A stretch of DNA of 63,262 nucleotides, filler included, from Rhabdomonas costata (Eukaryota), in the NCBI GenBank assembly GCA_019059605.1. It is 42 parts of 42 records of this genome, joined end to end, with 100 filler letters (N's around TTAATTAATTAA, not from the genome) between each part and the next. Parts side by side here need not be neighbours in the genome. Positions count along the whole stretch, not along the records: positions 24,159 to 25,567 come from JAHMHO010016798.1; 41 more parts are not named here. One strand, 5' to 3'. Positions within the stretch are counted from its first letter, which is position 1; every line of letters starts with the position of its first letter. This document shows, one piece after another, positions 3,022 to 62,368 of the stretch. The translations under genes and the position numbers were made by a program. The notes beneath the pieces were generated by a model that saw only the letters and a list, made by a program, of their open reading frames with translations, did not search any database and was not told the DNA's origin.

Positions 3022-4427
3022 TTTTTGGCCAGAACCGCATGTCCTGAGGCATTATAACGATCTGGGTTGATCTGATGTTCGACTTTCTTGTTTGTGTCGA
3101 GGTGAGATGAAGTTCTTTTGCATCGATTCTATCGACAGAGTTGGTTCCCACATTAGAGCTGCAAAGAAGACTGATGCCCAGCAGCGTCAAAGTGTCTCAG
3201 TCAGGGAGCTGTCCTTCCTTCCAGACCCTGTCGTATTGTTTTTCAAGTGCGATGGCGCGGGCGGCGTTCACTGCGGAAACACGTGACATCCTTGCTGTCC
3301 GCATATCTACAGTAGCAGTTACCTTGGAAAGACGAGTGTACAACTCGTACCTCGACAAAACGTCGCGACGCTTCTGGATCACCTGAATTATGCAATTGAA
3401 AGGCTGAGCCCAGGCCGAGGCCAAAAGGAGTGCTTTTGTTTCCTGTTCGAATTCTTCCAACCCTCACACTCTTTCAGGCCTCCCTGTTGAGCAATGGCTA
3501 TCCAGGAGCAGCTGCAACCCCCAGGCGTCAGCCGCGAAGCAGGAGACTTAAGAGAACGTGCGAGCCTGGAGCAAGGCCTCAGAGGGGAGGAGACAGGATG
3601 CATGTCCCCTCCCAGCATAACAATCTCCACAAGGAAATCTGGGTGACAATTCAGGAGATGTAGATGTGCCCCATTTTCTCAAAGGACTTCTTCACCCAGG
3701 TGCAAACGAATGGGCAGATCAATCTGAATTTTGAGGAGATGGAGCAGACCTTCAATAGAATCATACCGCTCGAGCATGGCGGAGTACATCATCACCGACA
3801 AGGTTTCTCTCCGATCAGTTTGGGAGTAAGAAAGAAGTGGTGCTTTGTGAGTCACATGGGATTTTTTTGTGACTTACGACTTCGGGCGGCTTTCGCCAGC
3901 CTGTGGGTCACATGGCGATGTGTGTGAACTCTTTCTTCTTGGTTTCGATTGATTGAGATGAATGTCTAATATCTGTAACGGCCGCCAAAAGAGATTCCTC
4001 TTATCGCATATAGTAGTTATCATTAACGCAAATCGATTGCAAATACAAGCATAGCTTTCAGGTCAGAGGCGGCTTAAAAGCAGAATACCACCTCTTCTGA
4101 CCAAAATACGAATGGAAGCAACCACTTGTAGGCTGGCAACGCAACGCAACGCGTTCCCTATTTCAGCACCTGGAAACCTCGACCTCGTTCGCTCTGGAAT
4201 TCTGACGTGGATTGGGTTCTGAGTAGACGTAGGCTCCGAGTCATCCTGTTTCGGATCGTGCAACTGGTGTATTTTTGGCCAGAACCGCATGTCCTGAGGC
4301 ATTGTAACGATCTGGGTTGATCTGATGTTCGACTTTCTTGTTTGTGTCGAGGTGAGATGAAGTTCTTTTGCATCGATTTTGTCGACAGAGTTGGTCCCCA
4401 CATTAGAGCTGCAAAGAAGACTGATGC
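3022..4427. repeat. Terminal direct repeat of about 156 bp (3022-3177 and 4272-4427), period 1,250 bp
   Basis: The two copies align end to end with 4 substitutions visible by eye. Confidence 0.95.
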
Positions 4428-4527
4428 NNNNNNNNNNNNNNNNNNNNNNNNNNNNNNNNNNNNNNNNNNNNTTAATTAATTAANNNNNNNNNNNNNNNNN
4501 NNNNNNNNNNNNNNNNNNNNNNNNNNN

Positions 4528-4834
4528 CGCTCCGCTTCTGTCGCGGTCCGGGCCTCTGCCTGAGCCCGCTGAAGCTCCCCTTCCAGCCGCTTGTTCTCCG
4601 CCTCCACCTCGCCCACTCTCTTCGAGGCCTCCTCAGCTTTCTGCTTGAAGCCCTATGCGGTGGCGGCGAGGGCGCGGTACTGCTCCGCGACTTGCTTCAC
4701 TCGGGCCCGGGTCTCCTCCAGAAGGGCTCTGAAGTCAGGCTCCACGGGACCAGGGGTGACCGGCGCTGATTCAGGGCGTACTGGTGGGCTTGTCGCGGGC
4801 AGAACGAGGCCTGAGCCATCGCGGGCGGAGTTCC
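4528..4834 (-). CDS. Coiled-coil protein exon with one in-frame TAG (4653-4655); possibly a pseudogene
   Basis: Acceptor TTCCTCAG, then ...DFRALLEETRARVKQVAEQYRALAATA*GFKQKAEEASKRVGEVEAENKRLEGELQRAQAEARTATEAE. Heptad-like E/K/R/A composition continues on both sides of the stop. Confidence 0.6.
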
Positions 4835-6201
4835 CTGAGGAAGAAAGTGGGGTTATACGCGAAACAAGCCTATAATAAAATCAGTGGGGGAGGAGATTAA
4901 GAATAAGGAGAAATTCAAAATATTCATGGCAGTGGAAAAGCTACCCAACCCAAAAGACGAAAGGTGCGAGGCGATGGCTGCGACAATTTATCCAAGTGCA
5001 GTTTAAGGAAAAAAGGAAATGGGAGGAAATGGGGGCAAACCCGTATATGAAGGAAGGCGAAAAGGGTATTACACACAGCATCCGTTAATACTGATAAAAA
5101 TGGAATCCGAACAGTTTTTTTTCGTCGGCATGATTAACAAGTTGCAGGAGTCTCAGACCAAATCTCATCGAAAGCCAAAAAAGCAGTCTTCAAACTCCCG
5201 TAAAAATTACACCTAAGTTCTCCGAGGAAACGCCGCGGATGGAAATGCCGCGCATACTGCTCCGCAGTGGGTGTGGAAGTGAGTGGGCGCGAAGGAAAGC
5301 CTGCACCGGGGACCGTCTCCCAAATGGCTGGACCCAAGCATGACCGAATGATCTAGCAACGAATACCATGCAAGGCATGGTGTGGCAGTCTCAATCAAAG
5401 AAAAGAACCCAGAGGAAAAAAAGCTGAGAGTGGGAGAGGTGCATGTCATCCCAACAGAACAGAGGCACCCCTAGGGAAGGTTCCGGTGCATCCAAAGAAG
5501 CTAGTAGTCCTGTTCAACCCACTCAGTAAAAGAATTCAGTGGGAATGGTGCAGCTCTTCAGCGAAGGCGATCGCCGCGACGATCGTATGCCGATACCCAG
5601 AAACATCCACTAACACGACATGCTGTGGAACAGCAACTGTGCTCTTGGGCAAAGTTCTTTACGTTCCACCGAAAGTAAGGTTGACCACAACAGGAAATCA
5701 TCTGAATTTGCATCTCCGAGCTGGACCTAGCATTTGCAAGCACCAAAAATTGACGACTACATCACCAAACGGATAAAATCGGCGATCTGAACTGATAATC
5801 GGTAAGGGTGGGGCAAAGGGGTAAGGGAAGGCCAGAAGAAGAAGAAGAATCAGTATCGATACCTTCGCAAAAAGCGCAACTTTCCGGGCGAAAAAGGCGA
5901 GAAATGCACCGCCTCCAATAAAAGCAAAACACCACCNNNNNNNNNNNNNNNNNNNNNNNNNNNNNNNNNNNNNNNNNNNNTTAATTAATTAANNNNNNNN
6001 NNNNNNNNNNNNNNNNNNNNNNNNNNNNNNNNNNNNTTTTGTGGTTACCGCTAGTCACAATTACGAACACTCAGTCAACTGATCCGACTAGCGGTAACGT
6101 TCATACTACCTAACTTGCGTGAAGTGTGCAGCGCATGATGGCAGTTACTGGAATCCGGTCAGACAGACTCAATGACACTATTTTGTGCAATTTTGAAGAT
6201 A

Positions 6202-11934: not shown

Positions 11935-13658
11935 AGCCCAACTAGACAATTAGCCTCCAGGCTGCGTAGGCATCCCACAACAACAAACANNNNNNNNNNN
12001 NNNNNNNNNNNNNNNNNNNNNNNNNNNNNNNNNTTAATTAATTAANNNNNNNNNNNNNNNNNNNNNNNNNNNNNNNNNNNNNNNNNNNNTTCTTTCGGGT
12101 AAACACAAACTATGCGGATTTTCACAACAAAACAAAACAAGAAGCTGCGAAGGAAACGGGCAACGGACGTGACCTGAGGAAATCCACTTTGGTAACAGTT
12201 CCCCGATAAGCATGTGAAAGGCAGGGCACTGCGCACAGCAGCAACCTTTGGCCGTGAAAGAACGTTGACTGTTGCACAAACTAAGAAGCACCATTCTTCA
12301 ATGGTCTAAGTCCGCAAGAATAATCGTATTCGTTTCTTGCAGAAAAGACGCGGTCAAAGCAGCTGCGAGGTAGAAGCACTGGTTTCCAGTGACAGTGACC
12401 TGACCATCGAACCCTCTTCACTCCATTTCTGCAGGCGACTTAACAGAATGTGATAAATCGCTGTCACTATAATCCCTGCTGCACCACCCGCCAAAAAAAA
12501 ACAGCAGCAGCGTCCAGGGCGCTGCGGCGGATGCGACGAATATGCGGAGAAGAGACCGGTACAAAGCACCGCATACAGAGACCGAAAAAAGAAAAAAAGA
12601 ATTGCCGTAGCTGAAACCAAAAAGCGAAAATACGTGGAAGCAGACATAGAATCAGCAAAACTTTAGTCCCGCTTTCTAGCCACTTGATACATAACGACGT
12701 GCGGATCAATACCGCTGGGGAAATATACACACGGCCGACAAAGAAGGGTCAGACACACAATCACTTACAGATGGAGCTTTCGGGGGCATCAGGCGCACAA
12801 ACCAACCCACACAATGAAGCTATAGAGAAGTTACGCAGCGGTCCTTGTGAAGGCGAGCGCGAAAAAGCGAGAGGGGCAAGAGAGAGAGAAGCACAACGTC
12901 AAAATCCAACGGGGCACCGTAAAAATGCAACGACGGTTACGTTTTGCTTCAGGGACACGATTCGCACATCCGGTGGTTGGTATATCCTTTTTCTTTCCGA
13001 TCTGAGGAAGGCAGCTGCTCTGCTCTCCTGAGGTTTCTGCAATGGCCATTAGTATGCGCCCCCTTTTCCGGGCTTTGCCAGTACCAGGCTCGACAAGAAG
13101 GGGCTGAAGATAAGGCTGCCCCCTCCCCCATATCCACAACGGAGGTGACAGAAGGAAGACGAAAGGAAGACGTACCAAATGCGGGGAAAGGGGAAGGGAG
13201 AAGGAAGGCTGCCTTTTATTAGCTGGAGGCCAGTCGCCGCGGCTGAAGCCAGCCCGAAGGGATAGGTGCGCTCACCATCAATCGCCTTCTCACGGCACAG
13301 GTGCTGGCACAGGTCGCTACTCAGGCTGCCACAGATCGGGAAGACCTCCGTCTCCTGCGTCCGAGTCAGCTCCACCGCGGGCAGCCAAAGGCTGGAACCA
13401 GAAGGGATCGAAAATAATTCATACAATTTTAGCGTTTCCAAATATGCGACCACAGACACTTACTAAGAACGCTTTGAGTGGGCTCAAGGTTTCAAAAGNN
13501 NNNNNNNNNNNNNNNNNNNNNNNNNNNNNNNNNNNNNNNNNNTTAATTAATTAANNNNNNNNNNNNNNNNNNNNNNNNNNNNNNNNNNNNNNNNNNNNGT
13601 TTGTTATTTCGCCTCTTCTCCTTGTTTGTTCCTTGCTATTGCCCTCACTCTTCAGATT

Positions 13659-14740
13659 CGGCCAGGTTCGAGAGGATCCGGAGGTGCACGCGACCACCGG
13701 TGATCTCTTCAATCATCGGCTGAATCTGAAGAGTGAGGGCAATAGCAAGGAACAAACAAGGAGAAGAGGCGAAATAACAAACACAAATATTACGTCAGAA
13801 AATCCAATAAGGTGACAATGTATTGCCTTTTCGCAGGCCGTGTTGATGGCGTTGGCGCCCATTGCGTCGCAGGTGTTGTAAATCAGATGGCAGACTAAAA
13901 AGGGGCCCACAGGGGAGCTCGCAAACTCGCGGACTTCCAGCTCACGCGCCCCGCCCCCGGCCTTCACAATGATTGGGTCGATCTTATTCACCGCCTCAAG
14001 AATCCTGGCCTTCGCCTCCAGGATCTTTAGCTTTGCCACAGCAAGGTTGTCCAAGTCCAGGATCTGCAGCTGCCCTATCATCTCAGGCTCCGTAGAAGAC
14101 GCTGTGAAGTGCAGAAGACTAATGATGACGAAGACGAGAAAACAATTACACTGTCCCACTGATATTTCAAGATGACTGGGTGACATTCATTTCTTCATGC
14201 CTGCCAAGTGCCTTTATCTACATTGAGCCTTGACACTGAGTCGGGCACACATGGAAAAACAAGCATTCTGAAACGCACTCTGAAAGCCTCCCCCGTCTCG
14301 AGCCAGCTTCGCCATAAAGGAACACCCGGCAACGATTGAAGGCTCCTCCGTGACCATGGGAATGAGCACTTCGCGGCCATTAACCTGAGAAAAACATCGG
14401 AGTAAGCGGTGCTTGTGCAACGCTGGATGGGCTAAATCTGAAGTGGGTTGAGATGCCGCCAAAACTTGCTGTGTTCACAACAAACAATGTTTCGCGCCCC
14501 GGAAACAAACAGGGTCAGACCATGAAGTTCGTGGCGACTCCCAAGGGCAGGGCGAAGGTGCCGATGACATTCTCAATGAGAGTGTCGCCCTTGGTGGCGT
14601 CGATGCCTCCGTTCAGGGCCTGTATATCCGAGGAAGGCAGCTTGACAAGCTCCACGACCTTCTTCTGCCGCTCTGCGGGGGTGAGTTTGAAGAAGTCCGG
14701 GATCCGCGAGGAGGGCCCCGCAGTCGACAAAGGCCGAACG
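13659..14740 (-). CDS. Class II (prokaryote-type) HMG-CoA reductase, 4 exons: 14740-14521, 14384-14279, 14101-13827, 13725-~13659; incomplete at both ends
   Basis: Spliced product contains [55 protein letters not shown] and [19 protein letters not shown] and LRILSNL are class II signatures (class I has TTEG). Introns 14385-14520 and 14102-14278 are GT-AG; 13726-13826 is GC-AG. Confidence 0.95.
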
Positions 14741-22692: not shown

Positions 22693-23220
22693 GTGCGCGA
22701 GTGGCTTGAGCACAACTTCGCCCAGACGTGGATGCTATGGGACCCCGAGGATCTGGAAAACAATATCCGCTTGGGGCAAATGCTTCAGGATGCGGAGCAG
22801 CAGTATGAGGGGTTACGTGCAATTATGAGAGTGTCAGACTACAGCGAACAGCATTGGCTGTCGACCCCACATCAGGTGCAGGATGTCTCAAACCACCGAA
22901 CGCTGTTTGCGTTTGATGACTACTTCGCCTTATTTGGTTTGGGCCGTTCCAACGCGGCCCTTATTAGACGTGCTGGACAAGCAACTGCCGCTCAGTTGCA
23001 CGGGTCGGCCCCTCCCGCACAACCGACTGATCGCGCTTCTTCGTCCTCAGCGATGGTTGTCGCGCCACCATCAATCGCTCCATTGGCAGGTGCGGAAGAA
23101 GCAATCTTTTCAACTGATACCACGCGCAATGTGGAGGCCGCGATTGTCTGCGATGAACTCACGTCAGGAACACCACATTCAACAACGCATGATCCAGCAT
23201 CCGCTCAGCTGGAATCGTGA
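22693..23220 (+). CDS. Intronless hypothetical ORF overlapping the downstream nuclease ORF (possibly one frameshifted gene)
   Basis: 175-codon ORF with a globular-looking N-terminal half and an Ala/Ser/Thr-rich end. Its stop overlaps the start of the -1 frame ORF at 23217. Confidence 0.5.
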   Translation: MREWLEHNFAQTWMLWDPEDLENNIRLGQMLQDAEQQYEGLRAIMRVSDYSEQHWLSTPHQVQDVSNHRTLFAFDDYFALFGLGRSNAALIRRAGQATAAQLHGSAPPAQPTDRASSSSAMVVAPPSIAPLAGAEEAIFSTDTTRNVEAAIVCDELTSGTPHSTTHDPASAQLES

Positions 23221-24058: not shown

Positions 24059-24367
24059 NNNNNNNNNNNNNNNNNNNNNNNNNNNNNNNNNNNNNNNNNN
24101 NNTTAATTAATTAANNNNNNNNNNNNNNNNNNNNNNNNNNNNNNNNNNNNNNNNNNNNTATGTGGTTGAAATTATGCACGGTGTGTGTGTTCGTGCGTGT
24201 ATGTGCGCGTCGGGAAACCCGAGCCGAGGCCGCTGTAGAGCTGCGAAAAACGTACAAACGCCGTCTTACATAACAGCTGAGGACAGAACGTCGTCCTCAT
24301 AACTTCCAAGGAATGCATACACACACAACAGCGCACACCGGCTCGCAGAACCATGTCACCAAAGCAC

Positions 24368-24572
24368 CGGGCCCGACCAGAAGCCGCCCATCGGCCTCAG
24401 TAACAGAAACGGTGAGGCAATCCGTGCGCGAAGTGACGAGCTGGGTGGGCGCCAAATGGGTGACAAGAACGTCAGGGCCCCTCTGGCGAGCGAGCCTCCG
24501 GGCAGCGCGGCGCACCCCTGCTGCCCGGTGAATCACAGCGAGCTCTTCCAGGATGTCTTCCAGGGCGTCACC
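24368..24572 (-). CDS. Internal exon of an unknown spliced gene downstream of the YecH-like gene
   Basis: Acceptor CTCTTTCCCCAG, open frame GDALEDILEELAVIHRAAG...GRLLVGP, then a GT donor. Confidence 0.5.
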
Positions 24573-25357
24573 CTGGGGAAAGAGTGTGCGATTTTTTCAT
24601 TCAATTTCATCCATTTCAAAACAAACGCCTTTTCCACCCTGCTTTTCCCGCTCACGTGGAAAACACGAAAAGTTCCAATTACAATGCAATTTAGGCCATC
24701 TTAACATCACCTATCCATATCACCCCACTTATACACGTCACACCGCGGTGTTGCGGAGAGCGACCCGTGACATCAAATCCGCGAAGGGGACATCGGTTAG
24801 CAGAATCAGCTCCTCAACGGTGGGGGAGCGAGCCATTTGCTTCAGAAAGGGTTCCGCGGACACTGGCACAAAGCCTTGTCCTCCGACTCACCTTGCAGTT
24901 TCATGGAGAATTGAAAGCGACCTACTTCCACAGCGAGACGCTCCAATATGAGCAAGCCAGGGCACCTTCATGATCAGCACCTGCTGTCCCGGCGAGTTAA
25001 GTGCTTTCGCCCACTCATTTTGGAGGAACCAGGAATTCACACAGGCTCAAGGACACCTGAAAGTGTATTTTGCTTATACTCACTTTCAACCCCAAAGGAG
25101 GCCACAAAAACAGATCTAATCCAAGGTTCAAAACATCCAACAGTGGCAGCCAGTGGGGAATAACACCAGCCACTCAAGGAAACAAACTGCACCACATAAA
25201 GCAAAAAGCATGCGGTGTTCTTGTTCTTCATAAGGGACGGCACACGGTTCGCCAATTCCGGTTCGCCACCCACAGAAAAGAAACTCTGACTCCCCACAGA
25301 GCTGCAGCGCGACGCCGGCAAGGCCAGCATCGCCGCTGCTGCTTGCCCTCCGCCGTC

Positions 25358-25567
25358 TCAGTGGCACTGGTGCTTCACTCGCAGCTTGGGCTGCGCGGCA
25401 GAGCCCTCCGCAGCCGCGACCAGCTTGCCCTTACCCTGGAGGTGAGCAATGATCTCCCGCGCGGTCAGGGTGTTTGCGGAGCAGGTGTAGAACCGCGCGT
25501 CAGCGCCAAACTCCGTTACGATGGCCTTCTCCAGGGCGGCAGGGGTGTACGCCTGCTCCCAAACACC
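25358..25567 (-). CDS. yecH: YecH / DUF2492-family small metal-binding protein (5'-truncated by the contig end; absent from the ORF track)
   Basis: EQAYTPAALEKAIVTEFGADARFYTCSANTLTAREIIAHLQGKGKLV...KHQCH-TGA matches the bacterial YecH pattern YT..SL..AI...FG..ARF(H/Y)TCSA..MTA.EL..FL..KGK...C(x)H*. Confidence 0.85.
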   Translation of the reverse strand, partial: GVWEQAYTPAALEKAIVTEFGADARFYTCSANTLTAREIIAHLQGKGKLVAAAEGSAAQPKLRVKHQCH

Positions 25568-44411: not shown

Positions 44412-45133
44412 TCAGAAAGGTCCGAAGCTGAAAAATTCACGTGACGGAGATCCAGAGGAAAACGATGCACAGGCCAGAAACCACAAGAGGTGCCACCCGC
44501 CAAGCGGGGGACCCCGTGCATCCACTTCCCCCTCCCCCTCAGCCTCTGCCTCTCCTTCGAAATCCTCATCATTCCTAGCTCCACAATCCACTACATCGCC
44601 CGCTCTGAGACCCTTCTTTTGCCCATATGCATCGTCGATGTCGTCTTCGCCTTCCGGCATGAAGGCAGCGGGATCGGTGATGCGAACTTGGTAAGGGATC
44701 AGCTGACTCATGTGAAAGACAGGACTACCCGCTCCGAGAAGTTCTGGTGTGATGTCCAGCTCCATAGAAGTGCGACTAACAACCTTTTTGATTAAAAATG
44801 GTCCTCGTGCTTTCGGTGACAGGGGAGTCCGAGGGCCAAAGCTTCGTTGGTGCTTACTTTGATTGACCAAAACCATTTGTCCGACTTTAAACTGGTAGTC
44901 ACTTCGCTTTTTATTAGCTTGTCGGACCATACGCTGCTGGTTCTCCTCAAAGGCCTTCTGTACGTCTCGCCATCCCTTGTGGAGCCGCTTGACAAACTGC
45001 TTGACAGTTTCTTGTTCTGAAGCCTCGGGATCGACTCCGTCGGGTACATCGTCAAAAAGGACGGGATGGAAGCCATAGTTAAGGTAGAAGGGGTGAATTC
45101 GGTGTCACCAATTGGGGCGTTGTTGATGGCCAT
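44412..45133 (-). mobile_element. Ty3/gypsy LTR retrotransposon, integrase C-terminal region (one frameshift)
   Basis: AINNA...FT/PFYLNYGFHP...QANKKRSDYQFKVGQMVLV...LSPKARGPFLIKKV...PVFHMSQLIPY (GPF-type SH3-like module). Frameshift in the C-run near 45092. Confidence 0.9.
44525..44540 (-). promoter_or_regulatory. Candidate polypurine tract directly followed by TG (putative start of the 3' LTR at 44524)
   Basis: GAGGGGGAGGGGGAAG-TG on the element's sense strand, downstream of the integrase. Confidence 0.5.
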
Positions 45134-48741: not shown

Positions 48742-51346
48742 GTTTTGCTGTCACCCTTTCTCCACCGCCCACCCCCTCCCTCCAAAGCTCACCGCCACAG
48801 GTGTGCTGGGGTTGCCAGTGACACGTTAATTTGGAATATCTGCAATGAACCAGGTCCTCGCCCAGGTGGCGTTGTTGGTGAAGGGATGCCAATTTTTCAG
48901 TTACTTGGGGACAGGGAACAAGCAGGAGGTAAAGCAACAAACCCACCGTCGCTGTCACAGAACACTTTTATCCAAGAGTCTACCAAAGATTTGAACCACC
49001 GGAAACGGAAGCGGAAGCGGAACTGTGGGTTGCTTTCAAAGGAATCACGGTAAAGCCAGGCAAGTGATGCTAGATGGCGCTGGACGGTGGGGGCCACAAA
49101 CCCAGAAACAGCATGCACAGAAGCAAAGGGGGTCGCGAAGACAAGATTTGGCCCACACACAAAGGAAGGCCAGAGATCAGCAGCCCAAGACGTTTCCTCT
49201 GCCAGCACCACAGGAAATGGAAATGAGGCCAGGTGGGAATATACGTACCCAAAGGCAAGGCATAATTTAACAAGCACACAGGCCCAGGAAAGCGTCGAAA
49301 GGGTCAGCAGAAGTCACAGAAATGTTTGTTCTTGCGCCAAGCGAGCTCGTAAATAGCCATCTCAGCGCCCTGAGTACTGAAATGGTGGTACCTGAGATGA
49401 GTTTTGACGAGACCCCAGAGGAGATCGATGGTTTTCGTATGACACGAAGAACCATCGGGTAAGCGTCGAACATACTCACCATCTTTATGACAGACAAATT
49501 GCGACGCAGGGTATCCCATGTCAATCAGGTTCTCCCAATAAGCTCGGAGCCCATCGGAGAAGATCCTTGAGCCTGCTCTACTCGCCCTCCCCCGTGCTGC
49601 ACGACAGGGTTGTGGCGGTGAGGGGTGGGTCCATGAGCATCACCATCACCATGAACGGCATCCGGAAGAAAAACAACGAAAACGCAAACAAAAANNNNNN
49701 NNNNNNNNNNNNNNNNNNNNNNNNNNNNNNNNNNNNNNTTAATTAATTAANNNNNNNNNNNNNNNNNNNNNNNNNNNNNNNNNNNNNNNNNNNNGGGGGT
49801 GTGCCATCATTTTTCTGACACTTTTGTTGAATGTACCGCTGTTAGCGGTTGAAAAAATACCGGTCTTTTCAATGGATGGACAAAGCAGTGTCCAATCCTT
49901 GCCATAATGCTGTTTTGCTGTGTTCGCTGTAATAGGGCAGGCACTTAAAGTCGCCCGGCGCCTTGTTGCACGTGATTTCCGGTAGTAGTCGCCGATTGCG
50001 TTTCCGGCGCAATACGGATTACTTTCCGCGGGCTTACCGCCGCGCCGCAAGATCATTTTATGGTGCACCATATTTTTCAATTACGAAAACCGAAATTAGT
50101 TCCCAAAACGCACAACAGCCGAACCGTACGCAAAGGCGGCCGGAAAATCGAGGGCCGCTGGTTTAAAAGGACCGATACCACAAGGGACACCCTACGAGAA
50201 ACAAACGAGGCATTCGACGTCAAAGGGCACAGTCTGGACGTGCAGAAATCGGTCGGGGAAGTTGCGGCAGCAGTTAGGAGGGTTTGTGGTTTGTCCACCG
50301 GGCCACTGGTGAAAAACGCTCCCAATCCATAGTTTGTAGAACTGAAAGCGACAGGTCTCAAACAGATACCTGCCCCTGACATATGAAGAATGATTCGAAG
50401 AGCTGGGAACCGGGATTCGGATTGGCCGATTTGGCATCGAATGTTATGATGATTCCTTCAGGCGTTCCCGCGGTGGGGAAAGCCCAACTGACCGAAGGGA
50501 TTACCGTGCAATAGAAACCATGAAAACTGTTCGAACAATGTGACACTCCAAACGCCTCCGCGGGAAAGGTGCGCCCACCATGCACATGATGGACCCCCAC
50601 AAGCAGAGGACACCCCATCATGGCTTGGAGGACTTGTCCGCATTCTTCTTCGCCCACCTTCCCTTCCGTTTTGAGCCCTTCTGGACATTCTTCCAGTCAG
50701 TACCTGTGGCGCGGAGCGAAACCAAAATAAACCACCCAGAACTAAAACAAAACGTTAAGAAAAGGAAATGAGATGGCACGCTCCGCTCACCTTTTTCCTT
50801 CTTGGGAGTATTCTTTCCCCCCTCCTTTGGCTTCGCGTCCTTCGGCTTTGCGTCCTTCGGCTTCGGCGGCTTCTTGGCGTTGTTGGGTTTGCTCTCTGCA
50901 AAAACAGGAGTATTTTAAGGGACAATAAGAGCGGAGACGCACAATAAACTCGGAAACGCACTTTGCGTGAGCAGGCCCGATTCGCACGACGACGACCGTG
51001 GTTACAATGGCGGATGTCTAAAAAAACGTACACACATCTCATTAACTTACAACATCGTGCGCATGCTCTTCTGCAAACCCCGTTGCTTCGCTGAAGACCC
51101 CCGCTTCTTTCTTTTTCGCTTTTCCGCCTCTGCATGTGAAACCGCCGGCGCAGGGCAGAGCGATAATCGCTACACACAAACCCAAACACACCCACCACNN
51201 NNNNNNNNNNNNNNNNNNNNNNNNNNNNNNNNNNNNNNNNNNTTAATTAATTAANNNNNNNNNNNNNNNNNNNNNNNNNNNNNNNNNNNNNNNNNNNNCC
51301 GCGCTTCTCGGTGTGTGTGTGTGTGTCTGCCTCTGCAAGCCTGCAG

Positions 51347-60347: not shown

Positions 60348-61754
60348 TGTGTTTAGGAACAACCACGAGCACGCCATCGCCATTTCCAAAAGACTTCAAT
60401 TCACTGCATCGGGACTGCCACTGAATGCCGGTTGCGGTTACCACCCAGAACGTGGGGGGTGGACCCCCATTTGGTGTAGGACTGCTCACCACGGATACCC
60501 CAGCGTAGTTAAGCATCGAGGTGGTTGCCTGTTTTCGAACTGGATCATCATCCTCCACCACGGCGGTGAGACTGGTACATGGGAGAAAAACTTTGCCAAA
60601 CGACGCAGGGATTTCAAAATGGAATCCGGCATGCTCCTCCAACTCGGCCCCCTCACAAGAGAAGTCGCCACCCATCGCTTTGACAATAAACCCACAAACT
60701 TGCAGTCCCAGAGTCATTCCTGCGCCCAGAGAGCGGACAGCAGGAAAGTTGCTTCTGTGTGGGTCATGTCTACCCACCACGTGGCCGTGCAAGCGGTTGC
60801 TGGACAAGCTCCAGGATAGACTAAGTACAACACGGCCGCCACTTGCGAAACCTTGAGCCACCACCACGAGATTGGCCAGTACCCTCTGCAGAAGCACCGG
60901 GTCGCACCAAACCTCCGTGGGCACTGCTGAGTCCGCACTAAATATCAGCTCCGTCTTATCCTGGGCAGCACTGAGCTCTGCGGTTCGCAATACCCGAATC
61001 GCTAGCCTAAACAACACAAAAACATGTTGCAGAACGTTTCGTGCGCAGTGAAACCAAAAACAAGAATGCATAAAACGGTGCAGAACCTTCGAACGTTCAC
61101 ACGTCGCTGAACAGGTCGAATACCCACCTCCTGGTGTGTGCTGAAGTCCAGCATGTTGTTGACACATAACAGACCGCTTTGCAGGGACACCCACGCCTTT
61201 TGCAGCAGCTCTTCACCATCGCCCTCTCCAGTAACGGTCTGGGAGTCGATCAGAACCTCAAGTGCTGCCAGCGCCGTGGTCAGCGGGGTGCGAATGTCGT
61301 GGCTTAGTGTGAAAGGAATCGAGCAAGCATCACAAGGTAAGTTGGATGACCGTCCCACGTGAGTATAGGATGGCTCACCAACGGCAGACTCAGTGCTCAA
61401 AGCACTTGTGCTGCTGCTCACTTGTGCAAAGGGGATCTCAGGCGCGCTTCGTGGTTGCTGGTAACTGCCTTTGCTGGTCGGCAAAGAGCAGGGCACAACC
61501 GACGGGAGGGTCGCAACACCCGTGTCCAGTGCAGGAGCTGACGACGACGCAGGTTCTGACAAACCCGAGCTGCACAGATGCACTATTGAGGAAAAATCGT
61601 AGCCCGGATATGATGTCATAGCCTTCACATCCACAACGCAGTTCACACCGGAGCGGGTGCATGGCTGAACGTGACTCGGTGCCTCTGTCGTCGACGAGCG
61701 ACACAAGGTCAAGGATACCGCCCCGGAGACTCGGTTCTGCTGTCGTTGATGCAT
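60348..61754 (-). CDS. Hybrid sensor histidine kinase-like protein (HisKA + degenerate HATPase_c + start of a receiver-like fold), exons 61754-61087 and 61006-60348
   Basis: H-box LSHDIRTPL, NNMLDFS, VWCDPVLLQRVLANLV, LGLQVCGFIVKAMGG, FHFEIP, then AVVEDDDPV. The 80-nt GT-AG intron 61007-61086 joins the two ORFs in frame. Confidence 0.88.
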
Positions 61755-61998: not shown

Positions 61999-62368
61999 TG
62001 TGATGGCTATGGCTTGAAGGCCTACAGATCAAATCTGGAGGATATGGGCTACAAACACGATTTACGTCAAGCAAGGTGACGGTAAATTTGTTAAGAAAAA
62101 ATCCGTTCGTATCACCCGGTCTGTCTCTACGTTGGGGAAAGTGCACACTAATACAATTGATGGGTGTTGGGGTTCCTTCAAGAACGCTATGAGGGGGATG
62201 AAGTCCAGGCGAGAGCACCAGCCCTTGTTCTTCGCGGAGTTTATGTGGAGGCACAACGCTACAGTTTTGAATCCATCTCGCTGCCTTTTCGAGCAGATTT
62301 TAGCTCTTCTGGGGTTGTATTCTGACAACAAGACTCTTATTGACGCTCTAAACAGTCTTTCGTGCTAG
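61999..62368 (+). mobile_element. Decayed Merlin / IS1595(ISXO2)-type DDE transposase C-terminus
   Basis: DG..LKAYR.NLEDMGYKH...FV...KVHTNTIDGCWGSFK...FFAEFMWRHN matches the IS1595-family DG..AY..L...GY.H / HTN.IEG.W..K / EF.WR.N pattern. Contains frameshifts. Confidence 0.88.

Follow-up and report, generated by a model that had tools for sequence, protein, structure and literature searches.

We propose that the minus-strand frame at positions 25358-25567 of the DNA analysed here (63,262 bases from the eukaryote Rhabdomonas costata, hereafter the window) is the C-terminal four fifths of a real gene of the YecH/DUF2492 family carried in eukaryotic nuclear DNA, and that this gene was probably gained from bacteria by lateral transfer and has diverged since, which is the most likely of the readings considered below. 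YecH/DUF2492 proteins are small, widespread in bacteria and have no known tested function, and a eukaryotic copy, if true, would give a handle on the role of the family: a YecH kept in a eukaryotic nucleus would show a function that does not need the context of a bacterial operon, and the altered ligands at its C-terminus would tell which residues are important. The result is a modest one, a single truncated gene on a contig of 1.4 kb. In the parts of the literature on 'DUF2492' or 'YecH' that were available, neither a eukaryotic YecH nor a tested YecH function appears among the matches listed, which agrees with the preliminary description of this DNA, where no characterised eukaryotic member was known.

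The window is not one molecule. A spacer motif occurs 41 times in it and separates 42 contigs of 1,404–1,426 bp each (about 59 kb), and the assembly behind it is very fragmented. The YecH-like frame lies on contig 17 (24159-25567, 1,409 bp) and reaches its final base, after which the N spacer begins. The preliminary description had reported here a frame of 69 codons with FG-x-x-ARFYTCSA, KGK and a terminal Cys-His, and translation of the minus strand confirmed it: the 69-residue protein, which we call P0001, holds FGADARFYTCSA and KGK, its last residues are Cys-His, and its 69 codons contain no internal stop, no frameshift and no intron. The frame has no ATG, GTG or TTG start, and for this reason it is absent from the ORF list. 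Since it stays open to the last base of the contig, the N-terminal part of the protein (about 15 residues, including the HxH region of the family), with any fusion partner, would lie beyond the contig end, as had been anticipated; this missing piece was not found elsewhere in the window. The GC content of the frame by codon position is 0.67/0.49/0.81. The features of contig 17 are collected in Table 1, where the DNA downstream of the stop codon may be a 3' untranslated region with intergenic DNA behind it, or else the beginning of an adjacent gene.

Table 1. Features placed on contig 17, in window positions
Feature	Position	Strand	Basis
YecH/DUF2492-like gene, coding part, 69 codons	25361..25567	-	Translation; PF10678 and TIGR03853 matches
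TGA stop of the YecH-like frame	25358..25360	-	Translation; protein end ...KHQCH, near the end of bacterial members
Remainder of contig 17, host-like DNA downstream of the gene	24159..25357	.	Tetranucleotide make-up
Tentative first exon of a downstream gene, ATG at 24836	24744..24836	-	GC by codon position 0.69/0.43/0.67 (frame 24741-24887)
Tentative 171-nt GT..AG intron	24573..24743	-	Donor GTGTGA from 24743; acceptor AG 24574-24573 after a pyrimidine-rich run
Tentative second exon, open frame, 3' end not fixed	24300..24572	-	GC by codon position 0.70/0.51/0.65

The assignment of the frame to the YecH family, made in the preliminary description from motifs, was borne out by profile searches. 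PF10678 (DUF2492) matches P0001 over profile positions 16-71 of 77 with 56.7 bits (E 3e-15), against a cut-off of 27, which is far above chance, and judged by this match P0001 is a real YecH/DUF2492 member. TIGR03853, the profile of the YecH family metal-binding protein, gives a score of 57.3 bits (E 1.6e-15). This falls under its equivalog cut-off of 65.7 and so counts among the points against a nuclear YecH gene, although such a score is expected because the first 14-15 profile positions lie past the contig end. The conserved core of the family is intact. In an alignment of 55 sequences with P0001 as the reference row, the protein keeps the invariant columns L12, G21 and C29, the last being the Cys of the T-C-S motif, as well as the nearly invariant F20, F26, T28, S30, L43 and G47. 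In an 11-row alignment that includes P0001 the final His is invariant, and P0001 ends at about the point where the family members end.

The relatives of P0001 are bacterial wherever an organism could be named. A word-based homologue search scored three candidates and returned one match, and when 1.84 billion representative proteins were searched exhaustively with phmmer, 56 matches were obtained at E <=0.001, just one of them at E <=1e-10. That one, P0003, is the nearest relative: a protein of 77 aa encoded on a contig of 1,971 bp in a public metagenome assembly, matched at E 1.6e-18 and with 63-67% identity. All the other phmmer matches show at most 56% identity to P0001, and only two of the proteins matched are much longer, P0054 with 208 aa and P0020 with 755 aa and no scored stretch. 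In the 20 clusters that were looked up, the members with organism names come from Escherichia, Citrobacter, Superficieibacter, Aeromonas and Photobacterium, and in the ESM Atlas 23 of 30 feature matches fall in DUF2492 clusters, the three best of which are 100% Bacteria. Two pattern scans were also made. Across 185,579 prokaryote species, each represented by a single genome, the scan yielded 15 relatives among 26 stretches, the closest at 53%, although its pattern, DARFYTCS, is exact in both P0001 and P0003. The scan of the JGI metagenomes revealed nothing closer than 56% (13 relatives among 270 matched stretches). The bacterial ancestry put forward earlier fits this distribution.

Compared with the bacterial YecH proteins (Escherichia and others, covered by PF10678/TIGR03853), P0001 has the same domain, is 39-44% identical to the enterobacterial members, and has in common with them an F-G-x-x-A-R-F-x-T-C-S core, a G-K motif, a similar end point and the same predicted fold. 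Unlike them, it sits in eukaryote-like DNA, its HxH is cut off by the contig end, it stands on a long branch, and it has Val for the Cys of the terminal CxH, with Cys-His two residues later. The Cys-x-His is a majority feature of the family and not an invariant one (55-row alignment). In the column of this Cys, P0001 has Val and P0003 has Ala, while each of the two proteins carries an additional Cys and His further on (11-row alignment), so that in the tail of P0001 a Cys/His pair is present but permuted, His-x-Cys...His replacing Cys-x-His. P0003 and P0001 also have in common the stretch G-S-A-Q-P-x-L-R-x-x-H-x-C, with no Cys at the canonical CxH place, although P0003 has a longer tail, C-D-D-G-G-C-H. 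As called, P0003 starts at the 'MM' position of the family and has no HxH, which could be due to an upstream intron, to a stop or to a real loss. Since the two proteins are just 63-67% identical and yet have the variant tail in common, this tail is an inherited conserved variant and not the product of decay.

We built a tree by maximum likelihood from 81 rows and 80 columns, in which the 79 rows besides P0001 and P0003 are all bacterial or metagenomic. P0020 and L013 were omitted from it, and so were L004, L010 and L011, which repeat L002 and L009 either in full or as a cut copy. P0001 and P0003 pair with support 100/100 among the bacterial rows, on a long stem of 0.875, and the end branch to P0001 is short (0.094). 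Both fall within a 7-row group together with four unnamed proteins and one Verrucomicrobiia genome, at a support of 92/79 (not starred), and the forks inside this group have 69/65 and 45/0. These values single out no donor group, which counts against the preferred reading. The best explanation of the sequence comparisons would be that P0001 and P0003 form a separate, fast-evolving branch of the YecH family. We give somewhat less than even chances to a bolder extension, in which the two would found a eukaryote-borne branch, that is, a functional nuclear gene under selection, marked by the His-x-Cys...His tail, which would be the first YecH outside bacteria. P0003 could, however, come from a bacterium, in which case the supposed 'eukaryotic branch' would be a bacterial lineage that has so far escaped sampling.

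We have also considered that the frame may be a dead relic, either a fragment left from the transfer or a pseudogene, with expression and function lost. Neither a start codon nor the N-terminal motif is seen, Val stands in place of the canonical C-terminal Cys, and the stem branch is long, all of which speak for a relic. However, a relic would not be expected to retain 69 codons free of stops and frameshifts, with all the invariant and nearly invariant columns kept, nor a coding-like GC content by codon position, nor a short end branch, nor a changed tail that P0003 also has. For these reasons we regard a relic as improbable.

Is the gene physically part of the host genome? We measured host-likeness as the tetranucleotide correlation of each contig to the pool of the other contigs. 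Contig 17 has r = 0.748 as a whole, and r = 0.756 against the other 41 contigs for the 1,199 bp outside the gene, compared with a mean of 0.68 (sd 0.12) for the 42 contigs and with a mean of 0.29 and a maximum of 0.60 for 78 pieces of 1,409 bp taken from bacterial and metagenome loci. The flank of the YecH gene is therefore host-type DNA on the same molecule, provided that the contig is correctly assembled. In the other 31 frames of at least 35 aa on contig 17 no Pfam family was found at E <=0.05, and a stretch of 1.2 kb in which no gene can be recognised does not resemble the coding density of bacteria. No repeats common to contig 17 and the other contigs were found, which counts against a nuclear gene.

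The main alternative is that contig 17 is contaminated or chimeric, a 210-bp piece of a bacterial YecH gene having been joined to host DNA by the assembler. That the gene occupies the outermost end of so short a contig fits such a join, and as the gene has no intron it bears no eukaryotic mark of its own; both points likewise weigh against a nuclear gene. The YecH piece alone has a tetranucleotide r of just 0.37 to the window, although 210 bp are too short to judge; a 65-nt fold-back at the end of another contig looks like an assembly artefact; and all the named relatives are bacterial. In contrast, the GC content does not change abruptly where the gene ends: it remains high (0.66) for about 100 bp past the stop and declines gradually from there. 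The third-position GC of the frame (0.81) is also within what the recognised host exons show (0.62-0.93). Furthermore, nothing above 56% identity turned up in the prokaryote genomes or JGI metagenomes searched, and the long branch of P0001 and P0003 is unexpected for an ordinary contaminant. We consider a chimera unlikely, roughly a one-in-several prospect, and we keep the nuclear gene of bacterial origin as the preferred reading.

The preliminary description had tied contig 17 to the host through spliced exons. The linkage finds support in composition, in the correlation of the flank, and not in the splice motifs. The motifs themselves are present on the minus strand, an AG at 24574-24573 and a GGTGAGT at 24893-24888. 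AGGTGAGT occurs once in the window against 1.9 occurrences expected by chance, and the motif alone is thus no evidence. A pairing of the GTGAGT donor at 24893-24888 with the acceptor at 24573 was rejected, as it runs into a stop after 13 codons, and we prefer the GT at 24743. With this donor the two tentative exons of Table 1, whose GC by codon position is coding-like, join in frame, in phase 0 on both sides of the intron. No Pfam family was found for them, and 24300-24836 may tentatively be the two-exon start of a neighbouring gene, on the same strand and downstream of the YecH stop.

What would the product of the gene be? If expressed, it would be a small stand-alone winged-helix-like domain of about 80 residues, to judge from the family. 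AlphaFold2 models made with the 55-row alignment (pLDDT 80.2 for P0001 and 92.9 for its full-length relative P0008) have three helices and a beta-hairpin. Foldseek gave no match in the PDB at E 0.001 or better for either model; winged-helix domains stand at the top of its lists with TM 0.4-0.56. In an all-against-all structural scan the top matches were mostly winged-helix domains, with Z 5.1-6.2 over 58-72 aligned residues; Z values under 8 may reflect a common arrangement, and such weak fold matches are a further point against a nuclear YecH gene. The predicted three-helix and hairpin architecture of the YecH family resembles that of the MCM8 WH, cullin WHB, PerR/Fur-type and MarR/PadR-type regulator domains, although there is no sequence relation to them; the likeness implies no DNA-binding role, and we do not claim membership. 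A sequence search of the PDB revealed no solved structure of the YecH family. With the family profile, this search returned only TAL-effector repeat chains, in which no stretch passed by itself, and we read them as a repeat artefact.

The N-terminal HxH is part of the family consensus in the 55-row alignment, and the invariant Cys, the terminal His/Cys pair and this HxH would fit a single metal site. Following the family, one metal ion may be held by the Cys of T-C-S, the C-terminal His/Cys pair and the N-terminal His-x-His that lies off the contig, and the product may act as a small metal-binding accessory protein, as the family name and the residues suggest.

The preliminary description had suggested a partner radical SAM maturase or sulfatase. 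In its full form this would place the YecH gene in a module for sulfatase activation that works independently of oxygen and was acquired along with an anaerobic sulfatase-maturating radical SAM enzyme (anSME) and a sulfatase. The short name of TIGR03853, 'matur_matur', which we take to refer to sulfatase maturases, points in this direction. So does a set of 14 control genomes, where YecH was matched in two, E. coli and Bacteroides thetaiotaomicron, each of which also has an anSME over the cut-off. In a Verrucomicrobiota sample of 151 genomes, with a YecH match in 7 and an anSME-like match (E <=1e-60) in 56, anSME-like matches were found in 5/7 YecH-positive against 51/144 YecH-negative genomes. 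This co-occurrence is not significant, however (Fisher p 0.10), and where both cut-offs were met the figures became 2/5 against 50/146 (p 1.0). We also examined 21 bacterial or metagenome loci, with 130 ORFs of at least 100 aa within 3 kb of YecH, the 59 nearest of which were scanned. A sulfatase adjoins YecH at one of them, L014, in a Hydrogenedentota genome, where it lies at 4324-5637, directly upstream of the YecH homologue at 6001-6177, with an anSME over the cut-off on another contig of the same genome. Against a module stand the lack of a radical SAM gene at all of the 21 loci among the ORFs scanned, the neighbours of YecH, which vary by locus, and the fact that just one of four YecH-holding genomes has an anSME over the TIGR03942 cut-off. 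In the window, a tiny sample of the genome (about 59 kb), no sulfatase or radical SAM match was found in 131 ORFs. The association of YecH with anSME in bacteria is at best weak, and we consider a transferred module very improbable.

The rest of the window gave further information about this genome. Among the 131 stop-to-stop frames of at least 110 aa, seven have a Pfam match: RabGAP-TBC, DAGAT, a Tf2-type integrase SH3 domain, HisKA, HMG-CoA reductase, and two IS1595-like pieces that fall under the cut-off. The RabGAP-TBC, DAGAT and integrase pieces are of eukaryotic type, in line with the preferred reading. The RabGAP piece falls among Atlas clusters that are 100% Eukaryota, and a search with the DAGAT exon found nothing in longer proteins. 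The Rfam and tRNA scans of the window returned no families and no tRNAs, respectively.

The HMG-CoA reductase, on contig 10 (13657-14709, minus strand), is a class II enzyme of bacterial type whose best relatives show 54-63% identity, the named ones being 'degradative' enzymes of Anaerolineales/Chloroflexota. Its sequence comes in four or more pieces that lie in two frames; of the three gaps that separate them, two have GT..AG borders and the third apparently starts with GC. This split indicates that spliceosomal introns occur in the genome and that the YecH piece is not alone there in being of bacterial type. As with the YecH piece, the relatives are bacterial, the contig is host-like and the third positions are GC-rich; in contrast to the 69 YecH codons, which have no such mark, the HMG-CoA reductase has in its GT..AG introns a direct eukaryotic mark. 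Taken together, the YecH piece and this intron-bearing gene suggest that several genes have passed from bacteria into this organism. A class II HMG-CoA reductase with introns, in a eukaryote, may be more unusual than the YecH piece.

Contig 10 also carries the fold-back mentioned above, an inverted repeat of 65 nt (13599-13663 and 13718-13782, 98% complementary, with 54 nt between the arms) that reaches the contig end and spans an intron end and an exon start. It looks like a fold-back assembly artefact and is a warning on the contig ends of this assembly.

Other contigs hold pieces of interest. On contig 41, minus strand, HisKA (E 9.6e-9) lies in an open frame of 250 aa (61005-61754), which is followed in another frame by a family-less frame of 288 aa (60349-61212); the two may belong to a single gene that is interrupted by an intron or a frameshift. 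On contig 16, plus strand, open frames of 189 aa and 288 aa in different frames nearly fill the contig (22651-24056) and have no Pfam family; they may represent a lineage-specific gene whose frame changes near 23200 through a frameshift or a short intron. IS1595/ISXO2-like DDE transposase pieces were found at 49307-49639 (minus strand, contig 33) and 62018-62365 (plus strand, contig 42), scoring 23.7 and 20.5 bits, below the cut-off of 27. At 44415-45104 (minus strand, contig 30) there is an SH3 domain of a Tf2/Ty3-type integrase, with 34.9 bits. These transposase and integrase pieces are remains of mobile elements.
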